A stretch of DNA of 10,301 bases from a virus (Duplodnaviria > Heunggongvirae > Uroviricota > Caudoviricetes). Made by a program: the position numbers and the translations under genes. Where the stretch lies: IMG/VR virus record IMGVR_UViG_2531839668_000006. One strand, 5' to 3'. A model generated the notes under the pieces. The model was not told where the DNA came from and ran no database searches. It saw only the letters and a list, made by a program, of their open reading frames with translations. Below are positions 214-10,301 of the stretch, one piece after another (the first letter of the stretch is position 1; the number at the start of each line of letters is the position of its first letter).

Positions 214-621
214 TTATCGGATAATTTTTTTCATATATAGAAGCTGTAACTCATCTTCATCAAAAACGCTATAAGGTTCACAGTAATTCTTAAATTCCTC
301 ATAAGTTAAGAAATCGTGAATATCTTTAATTTCCTGAACCACACACACTGAAGTTGCAACAGATCTAAACCGAGCTGGACCTTGTCCATCTGAAGTACGA
401 TAAATAAGCAAATTATCTCCAGGCTTTAGGCTGGCTACCCCATGCATTTTTGTTAAGTATACTTTTTCAATACTGTTGGTATGTGATATATCAGCGATGA
501 TACCAGCACTCTCATTGTGGAGTTTTGACTCAGGGAAAAGACGTGTATGCCATGCAGGATAAATACTTAATAGATAATTTCTCCCCTGCAATTTGACTAA
601 GGGATAATTAGCATAGCTCAT
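214..621 (-). CDS. Hypothetical protein (135 aa), second gene of AT-rich cargo cassette; fold unassigned, weak PUA-like/ASCH-like beta-barrel impression
   Basis: ATG at 621..619 preceded by AAGGAG with about 7 nt spacing (reverse complement of 628..633). Visibly AT-rich compared with the phage core. Fold suggestion rests only on loose motifs (LQGR near N-terminus, LKPGDNLL loop). Confidence 0.5.
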   Translation of the reverse strand: MSYANYPLVKLQGRNYLLSIYPAWHTRLFPESKLHNESAGIIADISHTNSIEKVYLTKMHGVASLKPGDNLLIYRTSDGQGPARFRSVATSVCVVQEIKDIHDFLTYEEFKNYCEPYSVFDEDELQLLYMKKIIR

Positions 622-624
622 TTT

Positions 625-1095
625 TTACTCCTTCCATACCAAGTTTTTAAAGTATACACCTTCTTGCCCATTAATCGTAGAAAGATTTTTCCTCGCCTTT
701 AAAACAAAACCATATTTAGTTAATAAGCGAATTAATCCTGAATGCTTATCAAATATAGTAACATATACTTCTTTTAGTTTGTTTCTCATAGCAAATTGAA
801 ACATAATTCTAATAAAACGCTCTCCAAGTTTGGTTCCATGAGCATCGATTTTAAATGTGCCAAGCTTTACTCGCTTCATCTTTGGAAACGTTGGAGTCAT
901 ATCACTCAACTCTTCATCTTCTATTTTCAAATAGAGAAAACCATCGATTTCACCTAATTCATTACGTGATACAAACGCCTTATTTTTACCTTTTGAGAGA
1001 AACCAAACATCAAATCCTTCATAATCAGCTCTTAGGCTGTTAAAAAACGGATCTTTTAAATCGATATCACTAAAAAATTTTTCCTCGATAGACAT
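625..1095 (-). CDS. GNAT-fold (acetyltransferase-like) protein, 156 aa, first gene of AT-rich cargo cassette
   Basis: ATG at 1095..1093 with an upstream AGAGGAA Shine-Dalgarno-like sequence. C-terminal half has GNAT-like topology: VKLGTFKID, an HGTKLGER loop, then EVYVTIFDKHSGLIRLLTKYGF resembling GNAT motif B. Called from motif memory only. Confidence 0.5.
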   Translation of the reverse strand: MSIEEKFFSDIDLKDPFFNSLRADYEGFDVWFLSKGKNKAFVSRNELGEIDGFLYLKIEDEELSDMTPTFPKMKRVKLGTFKIDAHGTKLGERFIRIMFQFAMRNKLKEVYVTIFDKHSGLIRLLTKYGFVLKARKNLSTINGQEGVYFKNLVWKE

Positions 1096-1170: not shown

Positions 1171-1271
1171 TTACATACATTAAGCTCTATCAAACAACGA
1201 GCAAACTTAAGCACCGCTACAACTCAACCTAGCTGATGCCTGTTTTGACGATTACCCTATCAGCGCGCGCT

Positions 1272-1290
1272 CGTATCCCCGCCACGCCTG
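1272..1290. other. cos-like GC-rich core resembling the P2/186 cohesive-end sequence
   Basis: Reverse complement of 1272..1290 is GGCGTGGCGGGGATACGAG. As I recall them, the 19-nt cohesive ends are GGCGAGGCGGGGAAAGCAC (P2) and GGCGTGGCGGGGAAAGCAT (186), so the first 13 nt match the 186 form. Position (after the SOS operon and cargo) fits a P2-like prophage map. Recalled sequences are unverified. Confidence 0.4.
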
Positions 1291-1333
1291 CCCGCTTTAT
1301 GTAGTGGTTTTCATGCACCTGCATGATCTACGC

Positions 1334-1357
1334 AAAAGCCCGCCAGAACTGGCGGGC
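1334..1357 (-). terminator. Rho-independent terminator on the - strand, downstream of the lipoprotein gene
   Basis: GC-rich inverted repeat GCCCGCCAG (1338..1346) / CTGGCGGGC (1349..1357); the - strand transcript then reads UUUU (plus-strand AAAA at 1334..1337). Confidence 0.5.
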
Positions 1358-1461
1358 CTTAACACAAAAGATCCTCAAACGATCATGCGATCTCATGCAG
1401 CATAGACATGCGCGTTTATGCAGAATGTGCAAAATCGTAACATACTCAGCAAGCGTGAAAC

Positions 1462-2139
1462 CTAGAACGTGACAGCCTTGTCAAAGCCAGAAATAATTGT
1501 ATAAGAAATAGACGAGTTATCAGCCTTGTTCACTTTGAACTTGGCACCTTTGTAAGCGATAACGTCACTTCCCTTAGAATCTACAGAAAAATCTGTTGTA
1601 AATGCTGCACGAGCCATATCGTTTGCAAATTCACGATAGGTGAACTTCATTACACCGCCTGCATTTCCATTGTATTCGATAGTCTTAACCAATGAGTTAC
1701 TAACTCGACACAGCCCATCAGGAACACGTTTGATAGAAATTTCTGATGCAGTATAAGAAGTACCATTTGGCGGTGATATCTCATTTTTTGCAGCATCGTA
1801 ACTAACATAATCAACATAGTTACCGATTTGCCCATAGAGATTTTTTAACGCAACAGCTTGAGGGTTATGATAATTGCGGTAAATTCCATTCCCCTCACTG
1901 CAATATGTACCAGCAGCGATAGAAGACAATGCACCATTAGCCGCACCAAGTTCTAGTACGTCCGTTTTAAATCCAGTAGCAGATGTGATAATGGGATCGC
2001 CCATGTAGGCGGTAGCACTTTGCCCAATAGCAGGCTTCACCACTTCAATAGCAGTGATATTTCGGTTAGAAGCATGTGGCACGCAACCAGTTAGGATTAC
2101 AGCAAGAGATATTGGTAACGCTACATTATTAATTTTCAT
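1462..2139 (-). CDS. Predicted lipoprotein, 225 aa, unknown function (cargo between SOS operon and cos-like site)
   Basis: Internal ATG at 2139..2137 gives MKINNVALPISLAVILTGC, a typical lipoprotein signal peptide with lipobox LTGC. Mature part is Ser/Thr/Asn/Gly-rich. The longer ORF from 2193 would bury the signal peptide. Confidence 0.7.
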   Translation of the reverse strand: MKINNVALPISLAVILTGCVPHASNRNITAIEVVKPAIGQSATAYMGDPIITSATGFKTDVLELGAANGALSSIAAGTYCSEGNGIYRNYHNPQAVALKNLYGQIGNYVDYVSYDAAKNEISPPNGTSYTASEISIKRVPDGLCRVSNSLVKTIEYNGNAGGVMKFTYREFANDMARAAFTTDFSVDSKGSDVIAYKGAKFKVNKADNSSISYTIISGFDKAVTF

Positions 2140-2162
2140 TTTTAGCCTATTATTCTTTTCTT

Positions 2163-2197
2163 GACAAAAAACAAGGCGATATCTGATTGACATCGCC
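2163..2197 (-). terminator. Candidate Rho-independent terminator of the SOS operon (- strand)
   Basis: Stem GGCGAT (2175..2180) / ATCGCC (2192..2197), extendable by a wobble pair; the - strand RNA continues UUGUUUUUUGU (plus-strand A-run 2165..2173). Stem is short, loop about 11 nt. Confidence 0.4.
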
Positions 2198-2252: not shown

Positions 2253-2486
2253 TCAATGCAGCCAGCTGTCGTCTTCCCACACCTTCTGCATAATTTTCAT
2301 CACTTGTTTTCTTTCTTCGTCCAGTTGCAGTCCGGTCAGTTCCACACCGTTAGAGCTACCTTTACGGATACGGATTACCGTTTTGGGATACAGGGGGCGC
2401 AGATTGCGGTAAAGCTCGGATTCAAGGGCGTCCAGGGTAGACTGGCTAATCTTCTGCTCTTTATCGATCATTATTTCAATGCGCAT
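2253..2486 (-). CDS. dinI: DinI-family protein (77 aa)
   Basis: From the internal ATG at 2486..2484 the product MRIEIMIDK...LDALESEL...ERKQVMKIMQKVWEDDSWLH aligns along its length with E. coli DinI as recalled (MRIEVTIAK...IDALAGEL...QETWESADDW). GAGGTG lies 6 nt upstream of the ATG. Confidence 0.85.
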   Translation of the reverse strand: MRIEIMIDKEQKISQSTLDALESELYRNLRPLYPKTVIRIRKGSSNGVELTGLQLDEERKQVMKIMQKVWEDDSWLH

Positions 2487-2496
2487 AAAAGTCACC

Positions 2497-2685
2497 TCAG
2501 TTGATGACATCCATTGAGCGGTTGTATTCGTGGCTTCTGATTTTTGCCATGAGTTCATCAGTCAATTCAGAAACCCACTGCAGAGCCAGCCCCTTCTCTT
2601 CATCACTACACTCACTAGCCGCTACAAGCTTAAGAAAAAAATCAATGCGCTGGAGCTTCAAAGACTCCAAAAAATAGTCCTGCAT
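2497..2685 (-). CDS. Small protein (62 aa), first gene of the LexA-controlled operon; positional analogue of the 186 Tum antirepressor
   Basis: ATG at 2685..2683 with a strong AGGAGG about 6 nt upstream (reverse complement of 2692..2697). Sits directly downstream of a LexA-box promoter and 10 nt upstream of the DinI-like gene. No family recognised from the sequence. Confidence 0.55.
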   Translation of the reverse strand: MQDYFLESLKLQRIDFFLKLVAASECSDEEKGLALQWVSELTDELMAKIRSHEYNRSMDVIN

Positions 2686-2726
2686 CTTTCCTCCTATGAC
2701 ACCACACGCAATACTGTATGCATAAC

Positions 2727-2769
2727 CACTGTTTATATTTACAGTATATAATAATCTTACTGATGTAAA
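2727..2769 (-). promoter_or_regulatory. SOS promoter with LexA operator (CTGT-N8-ACAG) overlapping the -10 element
   Basis: 2727..2746 reads caCTGTttatatttACAGta, matching the LexA box consensus TACTGT(AT)4ACAGTA. On the - strand a -35 TTTACA (2769..2764) and -10 TATACT (2748..2743) put the operator across the -10 and start site. A CTGT half-site also lies at 2714..2717. Confidence 0.7.
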
Positions 2770-2838
2770 ACGTTTTTTTACGCTTATCAGCCTGATATGC
2801 CTGGTATTATTAAGAGCACGAATTGTTAACCAGCGTAA

Positions 2839-5253
2839 TTAATACAGGTTCCGCCACTTATCATCTTCCTGCAAACGCTGGTTCCGATAGAAGATACGCA
2901 GGCCTGCTCCTGACGGAATACTGCCGCCGCGAAGGAGTAAATCGACCTCTTTCTCGCTGCCATCAAATCCTCTGGATTTCAGTTCATAGACGAGCTGCTG
3001 TCGTTGATGGTCTGTAATTCGCTGTTTGTAGTCTCTACGCCGTTTCGGTTTCACCAGACGTAACCTTGCAGCCAATTCCCGGCGCTCCTTTTTGTTCATA
3101 CTGTGCAGGTAATCGTGCAACACCTTGTCATCCATGCGGGTAATGTCCGTTCTGGGGTCCCCATCAGCTGATTTATCTTTCTCCTGTTGGTTCAAATTTT
3201 CAGCAAGGGGACAGTTATTGCCACGAGTCCAAGGGGCGCAAGCGCCCTGGTCGGCTGCCGCCTCCTGAACGTCAACGGCCTTACGAACCATTTTCCACTT
3301 CACGGCATGAGTGCAGATCTTGCCCTCTGCAATAGGTGACCAGATGCCATAAATACGAATGCCGTGATCGCCATAGGCGGTCGGCTCTTCGTTGATTTCA
3401 TAAGCAGTTCTGATGAGGTGATATTTGCGGGGAACCAGTACGCCACCCTGCTTCATGATGTAGGTGGCAAAACAACCAGCATCAGCAGCAGCCAGAATGG
3501 CATCAAGGCGCGGGTTATCCAGTACCGGCGCACCTGCTTTTTTGTCCCCCTGTTGCCTTGCCGCCTGACCAGCCAGCAATCGCAGTTCACGGTAAGCCTG
3601 ACGCCCCGGAATGCCAAAGAAGCGGAATTGCTGAACACGATGCAGAGACGCCCAGGCATTAACGTATTCAGCATTATCACGCAGGGATTTCCCCGTTTCC
3701 TTGCTGATCTCGCCAGCCAGACCACGCCCGTCAATGTTCTTACTGATGTATTTCGCGATGTAGCTTGTTGGCGTACCTTTGCGCGGGTTAATCAACTCAG
3801 ACTTAAAGCGCGGCCCAGTGTTATTGCCCAGCTCCTCGCGGTCTTCACGGATGGCAAACTTACGCAGTAATGCAGTGATGGTGCGGCGGTCTTTTTTGCG
3901 CATAAAACACAACAGGTGCCAGTGAACTGTACCGTCATGATGCGGCTCAGCCACCCGCACGCCATACCACCGCAATCCGGCTTTGTGCATCGCCTTACGA
4001 AATGCAGCAAACATGCCGACCAGATAATCACTGCTTTGTCTTACCGTCGCATTTGTCCAGGTTGGGTTGGGCCTGCCGTTATTTAGCGTGGAATGGAAAC
4101 GTGACGGACAGGTGATGGTGTAGAAAACGGCGCAGTCACCGCGCATTTCCGCGATAAGCTCCAGACCTTTAACACAGGCCATCATCTCATTGCGGCGATG
4201 CGCTGGGTTGCTGCTGCTGGCGTTTACCACATCCTCCATGTCCAGCGTGTCGCCGTCTTCGTTCACCAGTTCATGAGAACGGAAAAACTCCAGCGACTTA
4301 CGGCGCTGCTCACGTTTATGCATCACGGCTTCATAGCTGACATAAGGAGATGCTTTTTTGCTGACAAGGCAGACTGCACGCAACTGCTCTTCCCGCCATT
4401 CGCAACGCATCTTCCATAATTTCCGATACCACCAGTCGGCGCACAACATACGCGCCAGCGAACCCGGAATGAGTTCATAGGGCACGGGTTTACGGCGGTT
4501 TCTTTTCCGACGGAGTTGCTCAAACGCAGGCGGGATGACATCCAGACGCAGGGTTTCCGCTGCCACCCTTTCCCATGTATTGCGGATTTCTTCTGGCTTA
4601 ACGTCATCGGTGGCATACAAATCGCCACAAGCGGCATCAAGGCACATACTCATATGCGCAGCTACCAGGGTGGACAGGCGTTTCACCTGATCCTGACTCA
4701 TTTCAGGCAGGATCAGCAGGCCGTCCAGCCCTTCATGGCTTGCCATAAAGCGAAAAGATGCAGATAGCTGACTGTCGCGTACATGCTCCAGTCGTTCCAG
4801 ACATGGCTTAATCGTCTCACGTAAATAGCGGGAATAAGCCTTTGGCCTGCCCAGGCTGCTGAAGTATTCAATACGTTGCATCAGCGGCTTGCTGATATGG
4901 GAAGGCTGGGCGTTGACGTCCGCCAGAATGACCATATCCGGATTAAAACGCTGCTGCTCATGCGCCAGCTTTGCCCGACTAATGAGCTTATCCTGTTCCA
5001 TTTCGCGCTGGACAGGATCACGGGATTCATTAAAGAAATAACGCTCCCAGACCTGATCACTCAGCGCCTCACGGCGCAGCTGTTCCTGCTCGTTATCGGC
5101 AGCGTACAGAGTGATCAGGTTTGAAAGCGTAGAAACCGGCGCAACTTCCACCGGGTCCAGATAAGGGTTAATGGCCTTTTTCGGGCTGTTCCATGAGAAC
5201 GATGCGGCAGCTTCGTTAAAGCCGCAGCAGTTGTTCATATCGGCATGACTCAT
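2839..5253 (-). CDS. A: P2 gpA-type rolling-circle replication initiator (804 aa)
   Basis: Contains an HUH-type motif VHWHLL (codons at about 3916..3924) and paired active-site tyrosines SYIAKYISK (Tyr codons 3762..3760 and 3750..3748), as in phiX174/P2 gpA. Start ATG at 5253..5251 overlaps the Dam stop codon (ATGA). Confidence 0.9.
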
Positions 5254-6107
5254 GCACGTACTCCGTACACGGCAGAACTATCCACGCCACGCGAATAATC
5301 AAATCCCACCCAGCAGCGCGGCCCGGAAACAGCAATGATTTCTGTTGCTGATTTACCCTCGCCAGCTGCCACACCGATGCTGCGTTTTGCCTTGATGTAG
5401 TGGTGAGTAAAATTGCGATACAGCGAACGGATCAGGGATGTGTCACTGTTAGAAACAATGACCGGATGTCCTTCTGATGACCGATGTTCAAGAACAGATG
5501 CCAGGTGATACTGGTCATCTTCAGTGAAGCCGTCAGTGTGATAGCCGGAAAACGTACCGTCATACGGCGGATCGCAATACACCACATCCCCCGCCTTCAA
5601 CATCGCCAGCGTTTCATCAAAGCTGGCGCAGATAAACGTTGCTCGCTGGGCCTTTTCTGCAAATGCGCGAATTTCTTTTTCAGGGAAATACGGATTTTTA
5701 TAATTACCGTAGGGAATGTTGAAATGCCCGCTCTTGTTATAGCGACATAAACCACGGTAACCGTGACGATTGAGATACAGGAAATATACCGCTTTCATGA
5801 AATCAGTAATTTCAGTTGAGTAATTAAACTCCTGCCTTATGTTGTAATAAGCCACCTCCCTGTTTGCGATCTCAAATAAAACTCTGGCGCGAGATATAAA
5901 CGATTCACAATCAGCGGCAACCTTTTTATAGAGGTTGATTAAATCAGGATTAATATCCGCAACCAGATAGCTGGGATAATCCGTCTCCATCATCACAGCA
6001 CAGGAACCCGCGAAAGGTTCAACCAGTCGCGGGCCAGCAGGAAGATGTTTTTTCAGTTCGGACATTATGGCAGTTTTATTTCCCGCCCATTTCAGGATGG
6101 TGCTCAT
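5250..6107 (-). CDS. dam: DNA adenine methyltransferase, Dam/D12 class (285 aa from internal start)
   Basis: Motifs [18 protein letters not shown] (AdoMet binding) and DPPY (catalytic). Preferred start is the ATG at 6107..6105, preceded by GGAGGTG and overlapping the TraR-like stop (ATGA); the longer ORF from 6167 overlaps the upstream gene. Confidence 0.9.
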
Positions 6108-6331
6108 ACAGCACCTCCGTTGTAATGTTTGCCTTTCAGCTCTGCGATTTCCTGACAGGTAATGCAAAGCTGCACACCCGGAATGGCACGGCGGCGTGCT
6201 GGCGGAATTGGCGCTTCACACTCAATGCAAAGCACGCGGGACACGCCCGGCGTTTTGGCACGGGCAGCACGGATATGGCGTTGGCGTTCTTCTTCAACGC
6301 GCTGCTGTACGAGATCCATTGCATCAGCCAT
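6104..6331 (-). CDS. TraR/DksA-family C4 zinc-finger protein (75 aa)
   Basis: CIEC...(16 residues)...CITC zinc-finger spacing typical of phage TraR/DksA-like proteins. Start ATG at 6331..6329 overlaps the upstream stop (TAATG). Confidence 0.8.
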   Translation of the reverse strand: MADAMDLVQQRVEEERQRHIRAARAKTPGVSRVLCIECEAPIPPARRRAIPGVQLCITCQEIAELKGKHYNGGAV

Positions 6332-6631: not shown

Positions 6632-6973
6632 TTAATTCGGCATGGTTAGCCGTCTGGGAAATAAGCTCACCACTGCACGAAAATGATTCATTGCTTTAAT
6701 CAACTCCCGCTTTTCGTCAGTGGTCAGCTCATTAATGCTGATGCTATGACGTTCAGCTGGAATTTTTGCCATAAAGAATATGGCAGCCAGTGCCCGTTTA
6801 TTTTGTTCGTTATTGATATCCCGTGGATCACGCATATCTTTAATAAACCGCTCAAGCTCTGACTCAATATTCAGGCCAAATACTTTCGCCCTTAATTCCG
6901 CAATGTGATTAAGTCCATTCAGGCGTTCTCCGGGGCTTAATGGAACAGTCGCCGCAGCGCCATTAATTGCCAT
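6632..6973 (-). CDS. Hypothetical early-operon protein (113 aa)
   Basis: ATG at 6973..6971 with a GGGGGA Shine-Dalgarno-like sequence 8 nt upstream; same orientation and tight spacing as neighbours. No family recognised. Confidence 0.6.
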   Translation of the reverse strand: MAINGAAATVPLSPGERLNGLNHIAELRAKVFGLNIESELERFIKDMRDPRDINNEQNKRALAAIFFMAKIPAERHSISINELTTDEKRELIKAMNHFRAVVSLFPRRLTMPN

Positions 6974-7394: not shown

Positions 7395-7904
7395 TCACAG
7401 CAAACCGAATGAAGCACCGAGTCCGGTCACGGTATCAACTGCACTCGCCATCGCAGGGTTAGCCTGTAAACGGGCCTGCAATGAAACAGCAGCCAACGCC
7501 ATCAGTCGTGTTACAGAGTTAATGCTGCTGATAGCATCACGACGACCTGCACTGGTTTTTACATCGCCAGATACCGCACCTGCAGCAACACGCCCGATCT
7601 CTGCGGTTGCACTCATGACGTAATGTGGCAGTTTCTCTTTTGCCACCTCATTAATCGGTACACATGGCAGACAATGAATCTGTGCCAGAAAACCATCTAC
7701 CAGCGTTGAATCTTCAGTCAGATCGGTAAGCAGCCAGATTTCTGGTGCGGTTAATAGATGAGGCTGAGCTGGGTTCAGCTTGTTCCGCAGAATCTGCACA
7801 TTCATGCCTGCACGTTCTGCCAGTTGCACCAGATTGTGGCGCAGTGCAAATGCACGACAGGCTTCATCAAAATGTGGATGTTTGGAAACTTGGTAATCAA
7901 ACAT
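7395..7904 (-). CDS. cII: 186 CII-like early regulator (169 aa)
   Basis: Second gene of the early operon, immediately after the Apl-like gene. Length from the ATG at 7904 matches the 169 aa of 186 CII as I recall it. The ORF-track start at 7910 is a TTG; AGAGG lies 8 nt upstream of the ATG. Confidence 0.7.
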
Positions 7905-7936
7905 GGTCAATGCCTCTGATGTATTTCAGAATCGAA

Positions 7937-8158: not shown

Positions 8159-8283
8159 GATGCAACATTCCTCGTTTAATGATGATTAATCAGGACGAAT
8201 ACGGATCGTTTGTACTTTGTGAACACCATAAACATACGATCGCAAAATGAAATCGTCAAGATAAAAGTTCACTTGGAGTGACC
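8159..8283. promoter_or_regulatory. Lysis-lysogeny switch region between apl and cI with candidate pR and operator-like inverted repeats
   Basis: Candidate - strand promoter: -35 TTGACG (reverse complement of 8254..8259), 17 bp, -10 TATGTT (reverse complement of 8231..8236). Inverted repeat GATCGTTTGT (8204..8213) / ACATACGATC (8232..8241), one mismatch, overlaps that -10. A second repeat TTAAT-N4-ATTAA lies at 8176..8189. No convincing rightward promoter for cI found. Confidence 0.45.
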
Positions 8284-8853
8284 ATGAATTTGGAGAAAGG
8301 CGGACGAGGCGCTATAGAGCGCATGGTAGAAGCTTATGGATTCAAAACTCGACAGGCGTTGTGCGATCATTTAGGAATCTCTAAAAGTACACTCGCCACA
8401 CGCTACATGCGTGACTCATTCCCAGCAGAATGGGTAATCCAGTGCGCCCTTGAAACGGGCACCTCGCTTAATTGGCTCACAACCGGACATGGTTCAAAGC
8501 AAACTTCAGGTAATACAAATACTATGGAAGTTGCTAAATATGTATTATCTGATGGTGCCTTGCGTGAAGACGGTTTTTATATTTTTGATAAGGGATTTCT
8601 ACCCTCTACGTTTAAAAAACCTTTTGTCATCACAGATAACAATTCTGAATTTATTTGTGATAAAGAATTTGATGATATACGTGATGGTAAATGGGTAATA
8701 AGTATTGATGGCGAAGTAACGATCCGTGACATTACTCGTTTACCCGGTGGAAGAATCTTCGTCGAGGGTGGAAACAGAGCCTTCGAATGTAAGATAGAAG
8801 ACATTGAAATAATTGGTAAAATTATAAGTTTAACAGTCAAGTATGTTAAATAG
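8284..8853 (+). CDS. cI: 186-type CI repressor (189 aa)
   Basis: N-terminal HTH region (AYGFKTRQALCDHLGISKSTLATRYMRDSFPAEWVIQCALETGTSLNWLTTG) matches the 186 CI-type repressor pattern as recalled. Length matches 186 CI (about 192 aa). GGAG lies 5 nt upstream of the ATG at 8284; the ORF-track start at 8278 is a GTG. Confidence 0.8.
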   Translation: MNLEKGGRGAIERMVEAYGFKTRQALCDHLGISKSTLATRYMRDSFPAEWVIQCALETGTSLNWLTTGHGSKQTSGNTNTMEVAKYVLSDGALREDGFYIFDKGFLPSTFKKPFVITDNNSEFICDKEFDDIRDGKWVISIDGEVTIRDITRLPGGRIFVEGGNRAFECKIEDIEIIGKIISLTVKYVK

Positions 8854-8868
8854 CACCGGGAGGAAACT

Positions 8869-9060
8869 ATGCTTGGTAAGGTATTTTTTGTGGTTTTGTC
8901 ATGTTCTTTGTTATTAAACCCACTAACTACCTATGCTAGAAATTATCCCTGCTCAGGGAAAAAGGGAGGTGTTTCTCACTGTACCTCAGATGGCAAATTC
9001 GTTTGCAATGATGGAACTATTAGTAAATCCAAAAAAATCTGTACTAAAAACTCACGATAA
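8869..9060 (+). CDS. Small secreted Cys-rich protein (63 aa) between cI and int
   Basis: Strong GGGAGG with 5 nt spacing before the ATG at 8869. N-terminal hydrophobic signal-like segment ([22 protein letters not shown]), then a Lys/Gly/Ser-rich region with four cysteines. AT-rich. Confidence 0.55.
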
Positions 9061-9195
9061 CTTTTGCTTTTATATCTGCGTCTAAAATAAAAATGAGCCG
9101 CAGGTTAACCGCAAAAGTTACATGCTCACATAGCAAAAAGAATAGCCAACTTCATTATGGCTTCAGTGAGATGTATGGTCGTAGGATTTCATACA

Positions 9196-9224
9196 TTGAC
9201 ACTGGTTATACATACAGTAAAAAT
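9196..9224 (+). promoter_or_regulatory. Candidate int-proximal sigma70 promoter (-35 TTGACA, -10 TAAAAA)
   Basis: Perfect TTGACA at 9196..9201, 16-17 bp spacer, then TAAAAA/AAAAAT at 9218..9224, about 25 nt upstream of the int ATG and its GGAGGG at 9235..9240. Confidence 0.3.
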
Positions 9225-9248
9225 GCTCTCTACTGGAGGGCATTTTTT

Positions 9249-10301
9249 ATGGCAGTACGAAAACTCACCACAGGGAAATGGCTTTGCGAATGTTACCCCG
9301 CCGGACGAAGTGGGCGTCGTGTGCGTAAACAATTCGCCACCAAAGGCGAAGCTCTGGCTTTTGAGCGTCACACTATGGAAGAAACCGAATCAAAGCCATG
9401 GCTGGGCGAATCAGTGGATCGTCGAACCCTGAAAGACGTGGTTGAGCTATGGTTCAAACTACATGGTAAATCTCTGACTGCTGGGCAGCATGTCTATGAC
9501 AAATTGCTGCTGATGGTTGACGCTCTGGGCAATCCTCTTGCAACCGATCTCACCTCTAAAATGTTTGCCCACTATCGAGATAAACGCCTGACAGGCGAGA
9601 TCTACTTCAGCGAGAAATGGAAGAAAGGAGCAAGCCCGGTCACCATTAACCTGGAGCAAAGCTATCTAAGTAGTGTTTTTAGCGAACTATCCCGTCTGGG
9701 CGAATGGTCGTATCCGAACCCACTGGAGAACATGCGAAAATTCACCATCGCAGAAAAAGAGATGGCATGGCTTACCCATGAGCAGATTGTTGAATTACTG
9801 GCTGATTGCAAACGTCAGGACCCAATTCTAGCACTGGTAGTTAAGATATGCTTAAGCACAGGCGCACGCTGGCGAGAAGCCGTAAATCTTACTCGTTCAC
9901 AGGTGACCAAATACCGAATTACCTTTGTAAGAACGAAGGGGAAGAAAAACAGAAGTATCCCTATCAGTAAAGAGCTTTACGAAGAGATCATGGCGCTTGA
10001 TGGGTTCAATTTCTTCACAGACTGCTATTTTCAATTTTTATCCGTGATGGAAAAAACGTCTATCGTGCTCCCTCGCGGTCAACTCACACACGTTCTGCGC
10101 CATACGTTTGCGGCGCACTTCATGATGTCGGGTGGAAACATTCTGGCCTTACAAAAAATTCTCGGACACCACGATATAAAAATGACTATGCGTTACGCAC
10201 ATCTGGCACCGGATCATCTGGAAACGGCGCTCCGTTTCAATCCTCTGGCAACGCTGCCAAGTGGCGACAAAGTGGCGGCAGCGGTTGGCATTACCCCGTA
10301 A
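9249..10301 (+). CDS. int: P2-family tyrosine integrase (350 aa from internal start)
   Basis: C-terminal catalytic region (CLSTGARWREA, RITFVRTKGKKNRSIPIS, HVLRHTFAAHFMMSGGNILALQKILGHHDIKMTMRYAHLAP) closely resembles P2 Int as recalled. The ATG at 9249 has GGAGGG 8 nt upstream and begins MAVRKLTTGKW, like P2 Int MAIKKLDDGRY. The ORF from 9093 is a probable over-extension. The TAA stop is the last codon of the window. Confidence 0.9.
   Translation: MAVRKLTTGKWLCECYPAGRSGRRVRKQFATKGEALAFERHTMEETESKPWLGESVDRRTLKDVVELWFKLHGKSLTAGQHVYDKLLLMVDALGNPLATDLTSKMFAHYRDKRLTGEIYFSEKWKKGASPVTINLEQSYLSSVFSELSRLGEWSYPNPLENMRKFTIAEKEMAWLTHEQIVELLADCKRQDPILALVVKICLSTGARWREAVNLTRSQVTKYRITFVRTKGKKNRSIPISKELYEEIMALDGFNFFTDCYFQFLSVMEKTSIVLPRGQLTHVLRHTFAAHFMMSGGNILALQKILGHHDIKMTMRYAHLAPDHLETALRFNPLATLPSGDKVAAAVGITP

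Follow-up and report, generated by a model that had tools for sequence, protein, structure and literature searches.

Where in this DNA does the packaged genome of the phage begin and end, and is it out of the ordinary for cargo genes to lie on both sides of that boundary? The window, by which we mean the whole stretch of 10,301 nucleotides that was analyzed, is a 186/Fels-2-like prophage sequence. It carries an integrase, a 186-type CI repressor, CII, Dam, and the replication initiator gpA, and it shares 96.5% identity with Klebsiella phage 4LV2017 (Peduoviridae) from position 1260 on. All backbone genes visible in the window are full length. The features discussed below are collected in Table 1.

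Table 1. Features of the window, ordered from its left edge; positions are those of the window.
Feature	Position	Strand	Basis or remark
ASCH-domain gene (PDC-M11B), first 21 codons	1..63	−	translation MKVLLSIKPEYAESILSGKKK; runs past the left window edge
PDC-M11A C-terminal half, 135 aa	214..621	−	PADLOC PDC-M11A, E = 1e-48; same frame as the GNAT ORF
First portal-side cargo gene, GNAT-fold, 156 aa	625..1095	−	PADLOC PDC-M11A, E = 1e-58; phrog_13728 'acetyltransferase'
Whole conserved cos block	1263..1413		19-nt core flanked by ~125 nt (gpA side) and 6–8 nt (CGCGCGC; portal side); ~145–150 bp
Putative cosN-equivalent 19-nt core GGCGTGGCGGGGATACGAG	1270..1288	−	match to SEN8, 186, and P2/P4; 13-mer unique
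Core-proximal conserved flank GGTGCATGAAAACCACTACATAAAGCGGGCA	1289..1320	−	part of the ~55-bp region of P2, P4, and 186
Intrinsic terminator hairpin AAGGCCCGCCA-GUUC-UGGCGGGCUUUU	1334..1360	−	inside the cos block; fold energy
Distal (T/C)GCAT repeats, GCGCATG…CTGCATGAGATCGCATG	1379..1413	−	G.TGCAT....T.GCAT invariant in five junctions
gpA-side cargo gene, 243-aa ORF, predicted lipoprotein	1462..2193	−	lipobox in translation
SOS-operon-like region reading toward cos	2253..2838	−	LexA-box-like palindrome, 62-aa ORF, DinI/Tum-like ORF
DinI/Tum-like ORF	2253–2558	−	Pfam DinI, E = 1e-22
62-aa ORF	2497–2685	−	
LexA-box-like palindrome CTGTTTATATTTACAG	2729–2744		perfect match; follows the gpA stop and precedes the 62-aa and DinI/Tum-like ORFs
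Replication initiator gpA, 804 aa	2839..5253	−	Pfam Phage_GPA, E = 7e-128; backbone gene bounding the hotspot
Dam methylase	5250–6167	−	
DUF5347 protein	6632–6973	−	
CII (CP76)	7395–7910	−	
186-type CI repressor	8278–8853	+	
Tyrosine integrase	9093–10301	+	

Three details of the backbone deserve mention. The integrase ORF is 402 aa long from its first ATG, its Int_N domain begins only at residue 109, and the integrases of relatives measure 339 to 351 aa, so that the true start is probably internal. Between CI and int lies a 63-aa ORF (8869–9060); some relatives have a 63-aa YdcA-family gene there. On the gpA side, the LexA-box motif with one mismatch allowed occurs four times in the window versus 3.4 expected, which is the chance level, and only the perfect match at 2729–2744 is noteworthy, on grounds of position alone. 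The LexA-controlled p95 promoter of 186 occupies the same position, upstream of tum. By analogy with 186, the palindrome and the DinI/Tum-like ORF together suggest SOS-inducible derepression.

The preliminary description placed a cos-like cohesive-end core on the − strand at 1272–1290 and stated that its first 13 nt match the ends of 186 and P2. Those coordinates read CAGGCGTGGCGGGGATACG on the − strand, a 2-nt shift from the exact span of the 19-mer GGCGTGGCGGGGATACGAG, which runs from 1288 to 1270; the strand was thus read correctly and only the coordinates were displaced. The 13-nt match is exact for 186 (13/13) and nearly so for P2 (12/13). Over the full 19 positions, the window is identical to the annotated cohesive end of 186 (GGCGTGGCGGGGAAAGCAT, NC_001317 positions 1–19) at 15, to that of P2 (GGCGAGGCGGGGAAAGCAC, NC_001895 positions 1–19) at 14, and to that of P4 at 14. 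Identity is complete (19/19) with the feature called 'putative cos site' at positions 1–19 of Salmonella phage SEN8. The same 19-mer is printed as the cos site in the SEN8 genome announcement, where it was assigned during annotation and not via end sequencing (PMC5427200). In the accessible literature, we found no phage carrying exactly this 19-mer whose ends have been mapped experimentally. The core has the form of P2-family cos sites, a G+C-rich 19-nt stretch that reads GGCG(A/T)GGCGGGGA……. At four of its last six positions the window differs from 186, which makes the exact nick positions an extrapolation. The 13-mer GGCGWGGCGGGGA occurs a single time in the window, also when one mismatch is permitted.

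Does the similarity extend beyond the core? For P2, 186, SEN8, and P4, we joined the right end to the left to restore the circular junction and aligned the results, ungapped and anchored on the core, to the − strand of the window. In this five-way alignment, invariant blocks recur at constant distances from the core between about −112 and +26, in the satellite P4 as well. The motif G.TGCAT....T.GCAT is invariant at about −112 to −96, TGCAT.AAAACC at −31 to −20, AAG.GGGC at −9 to −2, and GCGCGC at +21 to +26. From −30 to +26, identity to the window is 55/56 for SEN8, 44/56 for 186, and 43/56 for both P2 and P4. Similarity to the P2 and 186 cos regions is thus found in the core and in both flanks, and the window has the flanking region common to P2, P4, and 186, a cos region of ~55 bp as cited in PMC9594776 and PMC3931495 (both secondary citations). 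According to the accessible text of PMC9122126, the cos signal is the sole region that P4 has in common with P2.

On these grounds, we put the probability at roughly 90% that window 1270–1288 is the cos cleavage core of a 186/Fels-2-type P2-family (Peduoviridae) prophage, a reading based on sequence comparison. The proposal that a packaging boundary lies here is upheld by the homology of core and flanks to the annotated P2, 186, and P4 ends. It is extremely unlikely that the similarity arises from a G+C-rich string matching by chance, or from a conserved regulatory or terminator region with no part in packaging. The core is short and a strong intrinsic terminator lies within the block, as such an explanation would have it, but the 13-mer appears in 0 of 200 dinucleotide-preserving shuffles of the window, ~140 nt of flanks align ungapped to annotated P2, 186, and P4 ends, the position between gpA-side genes and portal is syntenic, and the identical 19-mer has been published as a cos site (PMC5427200).

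We then asked how far the conserved cos block extends. A scan of IMG/VR with RAAGYGGGCRGGCGWGGCGGGGA gave 120 loci, 41 of them with exactly the 19-mer of the window. Among 38 unique segments with the same core, identity to the window is ~0.85 to 1.0 from −125 to +26 (window ~1413 to ~1263) and drops on both sides to ~0.3, the background level. Other comparisons place the limits similarly: megablast/blastn matches to P2-like phages of Klebsiella, Salmonella, and E. coli end at window 1252–1264; eight loci that have the gpA-side gene of the window all diverge 6 to 8 nt past the core; and in four loci where the cargo in common is that of the portal side only, divergence begins on the gpA side, 118 nt from the core (window 1406). 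The block has a GC content of 52%. Both cargo stretches are AT-rich, at 30 to 40% GC versus 48 to 56% in the backbone. The cos assignment accounts for the abrupt end, at window ~1262, of homology to related phages, and it would fix the packaging boundary of the prophage and orient its map.

What might the long gpA-side flank be for? In −130..−1, the density of TGCAT/ATGCA is ~10-fold that of neighboring DNA, in every cos-core type among 120 IMG/VR contigs. The distal (T/C)GCAT repeats are a candidate recognition element for the small terminase subunit; they are likely to serve in recognition because they are the only other sequence in common with P4. The same flank contains the terminator hairpin, with a ΔG of −21.8 kcal/mol and a z score of −4.2; 0 of 200 shuffles fold equally well. 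In 186, the corresponding position carries the annotated terminator t95b. Such a hairpin would end a transcript running from the gpA side toward cos. Conservation of the 125 nt on the gpA side could in part reflect this embedded terminator and recent common ancestry, not terminase binding.

The presence of the block in P4 raises another explanation, namely, that the cos belongs to a P4-like satellite integrated beside or fused with phage DNA, and not to a P2-like prophage. P4-like satellites do share the cos block, with a cargo hotspot directly adjoining it, in the accessible text of PMC9122126. However, the block is bordered on one side by 186-type int, CI, CII, Dam, and gpA in the window and on the other by portal and terminase in the relatives; genes of the P4 type (psu, delta, sid, alpha) were not seen, and the synteny is that of complete Peduoviridae genomes. 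We regard a satellite origin as very improbable and retain the assignment to a P2-family prophage.

The preliminary description presumed that a portal gene lies beyond the left edge, with a GNAT cassette between it and cos. Both expectations agree with what is seen in relatives. In E. coli prophages that are 99.5% identical to the window over 1–1411, the order is terminase, portal, putAbiC, ASCH-like, AAA_17/18, ASCH, 193-aa, GNAT, cos, DinI, and gpA. Four contigs encoding the exact 135-aa allele of the window have the same order; in them, as in the E. coli prophages, the portal and then the terminase come ~2.3 kb further on. After the portal and the large terminase subunit, these contigs encode scaffold, capsid, and the small terminase subunit. 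One IMG/VR locus with the same cassette (L061) has 3,365 nt from the core to the portal stop (~3.4 kb of cargo). A portal gene to the left was found in every relative examined, and contigs encoding identical cargo proteins have the GNAT cassette between cos and portal. Every relative examined also has a terminase (Terminase_6N/6C, Phage_term_smal), encoded outside the window coordinates. Taking the window and its relatives together, the core lies where a P2-family cos is expected, with the genes that follow A on one side and the portal/terminase genes (Q, P) on the other. The portal and terminase of the window's own element are presumably intact, judging from these close relatives.

On the gpA side of cos, the predicted lipoprotein gene sits between the DinI/Tum-like gene and cos, in the tin/old-equivalent position that had been proposed for it; this is the tin/old slot of P2 and the orf97 slot of 186. 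The lipobox of the 243-aa ORF follows an internal Met at 2139 (MKINNVALPISLAVILTG|C), the likely start, and the ORF matches phrog_1353 from residue 19. Since the signal peptide begins at this internal Met, the real lipoprotein gene is probably one of 225 aa, transcribed from a separate promoter that follows a t95a-like terminator. The 243-aa ORF overlaps in its first codons with a terminator-like hairpin (2199–2173). Orf97 of 186 is equal in length and occupies the same slot, and homology to it was considered and rejected (BLASTP E = 4.5, 19% identity over 68 residues), which leaves a purely positional resemblance. The exact 243-aa protein is indexed in 1,563 blocks of an assembly collection, from which we read 25 contigs. 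In these, the identical gene faces eight different cargo sets across cos, each followed by portal and terminase; the sets include AIPR, ThsB-TIR, HIRAN, STM3845 with RVT_1, and DUF4325.

On the portal side, the 156-aa and 135-aa ORFs span positions 11–160 and 166–296 of the 357 positions of the PADLOC profile PDC-M11A, and their ASCH neighbor matches PDC-M11B (E = 2e-49) and Pfam ASCH, with an annotated ASCH CDS in the same place in E. coli. Neither the 156-aa nor the 135-aa ORF has a Pfam match, even at E ≤ 5, and the homologue in SopEΦ scores 14.7 bits versus a cutoff of 20.7 bits for Pfam Acetyltransf. For the 156-aa ORF, AlphaFold2 gave a model with a pLDDT of 94.5 and a pTM of 0.87 (53 homologues), and the top 50 Foldseek matches of that model in the PDB are all GNAT acetyltransferases (E ~1e-6, TM 0.55 to 0.72). 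The label GNAT is therefore justified at the level of the predicted fold, on which membership rests here, and not on a sequence profile.

A single in-frame stop (627–625; …VWKE*KMSYANYP…, window 619–630) splits the PDC-M11A-like gene into its two halves. The stand-alone 156-aa form keeps its length down to ~57% identity, and the split therefore looks, from sequence comparison, old and stable and not like a fresh nonsense mutation. A 1-nt deletion near 224 shortens the C-terminal half from 193 to 135 aa relative to the form in E. coli MLI104K1. The 135-aa form is either a circulating allele or a recurrent homopolymer error, and it is not unique to the window. PDC-M11 is listed in PADLOC as a candidate only, and our literature search found no functional paper on its defense activity. 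A consensus scan of the − strand from 1096 to 1262 found no convincing −35/−10 pair that could serve as a promoter for the portal-side cassette; the overall counts of −35/−10 consensus matches are at shuffle level. Where contigs encode the same proteins, the PDC-M11 cassette is followed by genes for a kinase-like protein, another ASCH-like protein, and putAbiC.

A truncated gene next to the block invites the question of whether the cos is still in use. It could be a dead relic in a defective, noninducible prophage, an inherited sequence that no longer serves as a packaging boundary. The window covers only part of the element, the 1-nt deletion truncates the adjacent cargo gene, and the lipoprotein gene and GNAT cassette were not found together in the places shown by look-ups of the exact 135-aa and 243-aa proteins, so that the exact cargo combination is absent from the contigs found that would show the morphogenetic genes. 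Against decay stand a core and flanks essentially identical to those of many prophages and phage records, the full length of every visible backbone gene, a full portal, terminase, and capsid module in every relative examined, and the occurrence of the 135-aa allele on 19 public contigs, in otherwise complete prophages. A relic is improbable, if less so than the alternatives above.

Set beside what is observed directly (sequence homology, block boundaries, synteny, cargo diversity, and the GNAT fold of the 156-aa model), a packaging mechanism can be proposed by analogy with P2, 186, and P4. The terminase would consist of homologues of gpM and gpP, whose genes lie left of the window, just past the portal gene. 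It would recognize the cos block of ~145 to 150 bp (window ~1263–1413) and make a staggered cut across the 19-mer, nicking the − strand 5′ of 1288 and the + strand 5′ of 1270, and a unit genome with 19-nt 5′ cohesive ends would then be packaged. These nick positions are taken from the annotation of P2 and 186, and they and the role of the TGCAT repeats are put forward on that analogy. Most of the recognition sequence would lie on the gpA side of the cut, in the (T/C)GCAT repeats and TGCAT.AAAACC…AAG.GGGC, and only ~7 nt (CGCGCGC) would be constrained on the portal side. With so short a constraint, foreign DNA could abut cos directly on the portal side. The cos block separates two cargo slots, one from DinI/Tum to cos with the lipoprotein gene and one from cos to portal with the GNAT gene, the C-terminal half, and ASCH; together they make up the published gpA–gpQ hotspot of P2-like phages. 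Under this scheme, the GNAT cassette would come first at the left end of the virion DNA, and the right end would lie just past the lipoprotein gene and the cos-block terminator. We found nothing on packaging direction in the accessible literature.

Is a cassette between cos and portal an unusual insertion, as the preliminary description had supposed? The comparison of core-to-portal-stop distances across IMG/VR loci, with the portal stop located by a tblastn estimate, indicates that it is not. The median distance is 169 nt for P2-type cores, with 4 of 31 loci above 400 nt, and 180 nt for 186-type cores (4 of 13 above 400 nt). For the core type of the window, GGCGTGGCGGGGATACGAG, the median is 1,796 nt, and 23 of the 27 loci exceed 400 nt; for core type GGCGTGGCGGGGATAGCAT, it is 1,483 nt, with 13/18 above 400 nt. 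A gene-free gap between cos and portal is true of P2 and 186 and untrue of the Fels-2/SEN8-type lineage to which the window belongs. Median gpA-to-cos distances among IMG/VR loci L012–L131 are 2,648 nt for P2-type cores and 928 nt for the core type of the window.

What fills this interval is highly diverse. The 46 viral contigs in which cos and portal lie more than 400 nt apart contain 79 ORFs in that interval, which form 63 clusters. A PADLOC scan of the 63 cargo representatives revealed known defense families, including retron/DRT reverse transcriptases and PDC-M03A; the output gives presence and not the fraction of members that match. Named phages carry other genes at the same place: a hypothetical gene and a reverse transcriptase in 4LV2017, an AIPR gene in ST11-VIM1phi8.4, a hypothetical gene and an HNH gene in SEN8, and orf14 and orf15 in SopEΦ. 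The GNAT cassette is itself found with three states of the gpA side across the E. coli prophages and the window: no gene, a 203-aa hypothetical protein, or the lipoprotein.

These observations place the locus in a known hotspot. In the accessible text of Rousset et al. 2022 (PMC9122126), the interval from gpA to gpQ is described as the cargo and defense hotspot of P2-like phages, with 1,650 arrangements in 18,150 E. coli loci, and the definition is repeated in the accessible text of a 2026 paper (PMC13586616). Table S5A of Rousset et al., in the accessible part of that source, lists WP_000020981, WP_001369944, and WP_001555843, with AAA_17/18 and putAbiC (PMC9122126). These are the proteins annotated in the near-identical E. 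coli prophages, and the table lists them as hypothetical. The window likewise has accessory genes between gpA and gpQ beside cos, with content that is hypervariable among syntenic phages. Location and cassette are already cataloged, and the locus is a typical example of a familiar feature at an established hotspot. Annotators would do best to treat the lipoprotein gene and the GNAT/ASCH cassette as interchangeable cargo and not as a peculiar insertion; the cargo may have an anti-phage function.

Could the hotspot be two loci and not one? Nothing else in the interval is conserved besides the cos block, and for that reason the block may act as an anchor for homologous recombination. We give about even odds to the idea that the gpA–gpQ hotspot consists of two independently assorting slots, split by a ~145-bp cos block that would permit either one to be swapped. 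Slot use appears to be lineage specific, with P2-type cores carrying cargo almost only on the gpA side and Fels-2/SEN8-type cores mostly on the portal side. If the idea is correct, the two slots would lie at opposite termini of the virion chromosome after packaging. Neither a two-slot description nor lineage-dependent slot use was found in the accessible text of the literature. The sharp limits of the block (~−125 to +26) and the lineage-dependent side of the cargo are only mildly new points. Block limits and choice of side could guide the design of cosmids or transducing particles and studies of defense-gene swaps among P2-like phages.

How does the window compare with the closest known systems? 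Fels-2 (NC_010463) is 100% identical over window 1263–1420, and SEN8 (KT630647.2; Felsduovirus, Fels-2-type) has the identical 19-mer and also carries cargo between cos and portal. The cargo of SEN8 and Fels-2 differs from that of the window on both sides of cos. The more distant 186, P2, and P4 (NC_001317, NC_001895, NC_001609) have in common with the window the core GGCG(A/T)GGCGGGGA, the flanks TGCAT.AAAACC…AAG.GGGC and GCGCGC, and the distal TGCAT repeats, and all four cos sites adjoin genes downstream of gpA. They differ in the last six core bases, where the window reads ATACGAG and P2/186/P4 read AAAGCAT or AAAGCAC. In P2 and 186, the portal stop lies 168 to 176 nt from the core (169 to 180 nt by the tblastn estimate) with no gene between, whereas the element of the window would have ~3.4 kb of cargo there. 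SopEΦ has the PDC-M11 A and B pair in its orf12 and orf13 region (L011:3358-4822), with 66.6% DNA identity to the corresponding region of the window. Its orf12 encodes a fused A protein of 369 aa (L011:3358-4467), whereas the A gene of the window is split by the stop and its C-terminal half is frameshifted. The fused pair of SopEΦ lies on the gpA side of cos and the cassette of the window on the portal side, and the same cassette can thus occupy either slot. Finally, the accessible texts of Rousset et al. 2022 and PMC13586616 treat the interval as one locus, whereas the present comparison resolves two slots around cos.
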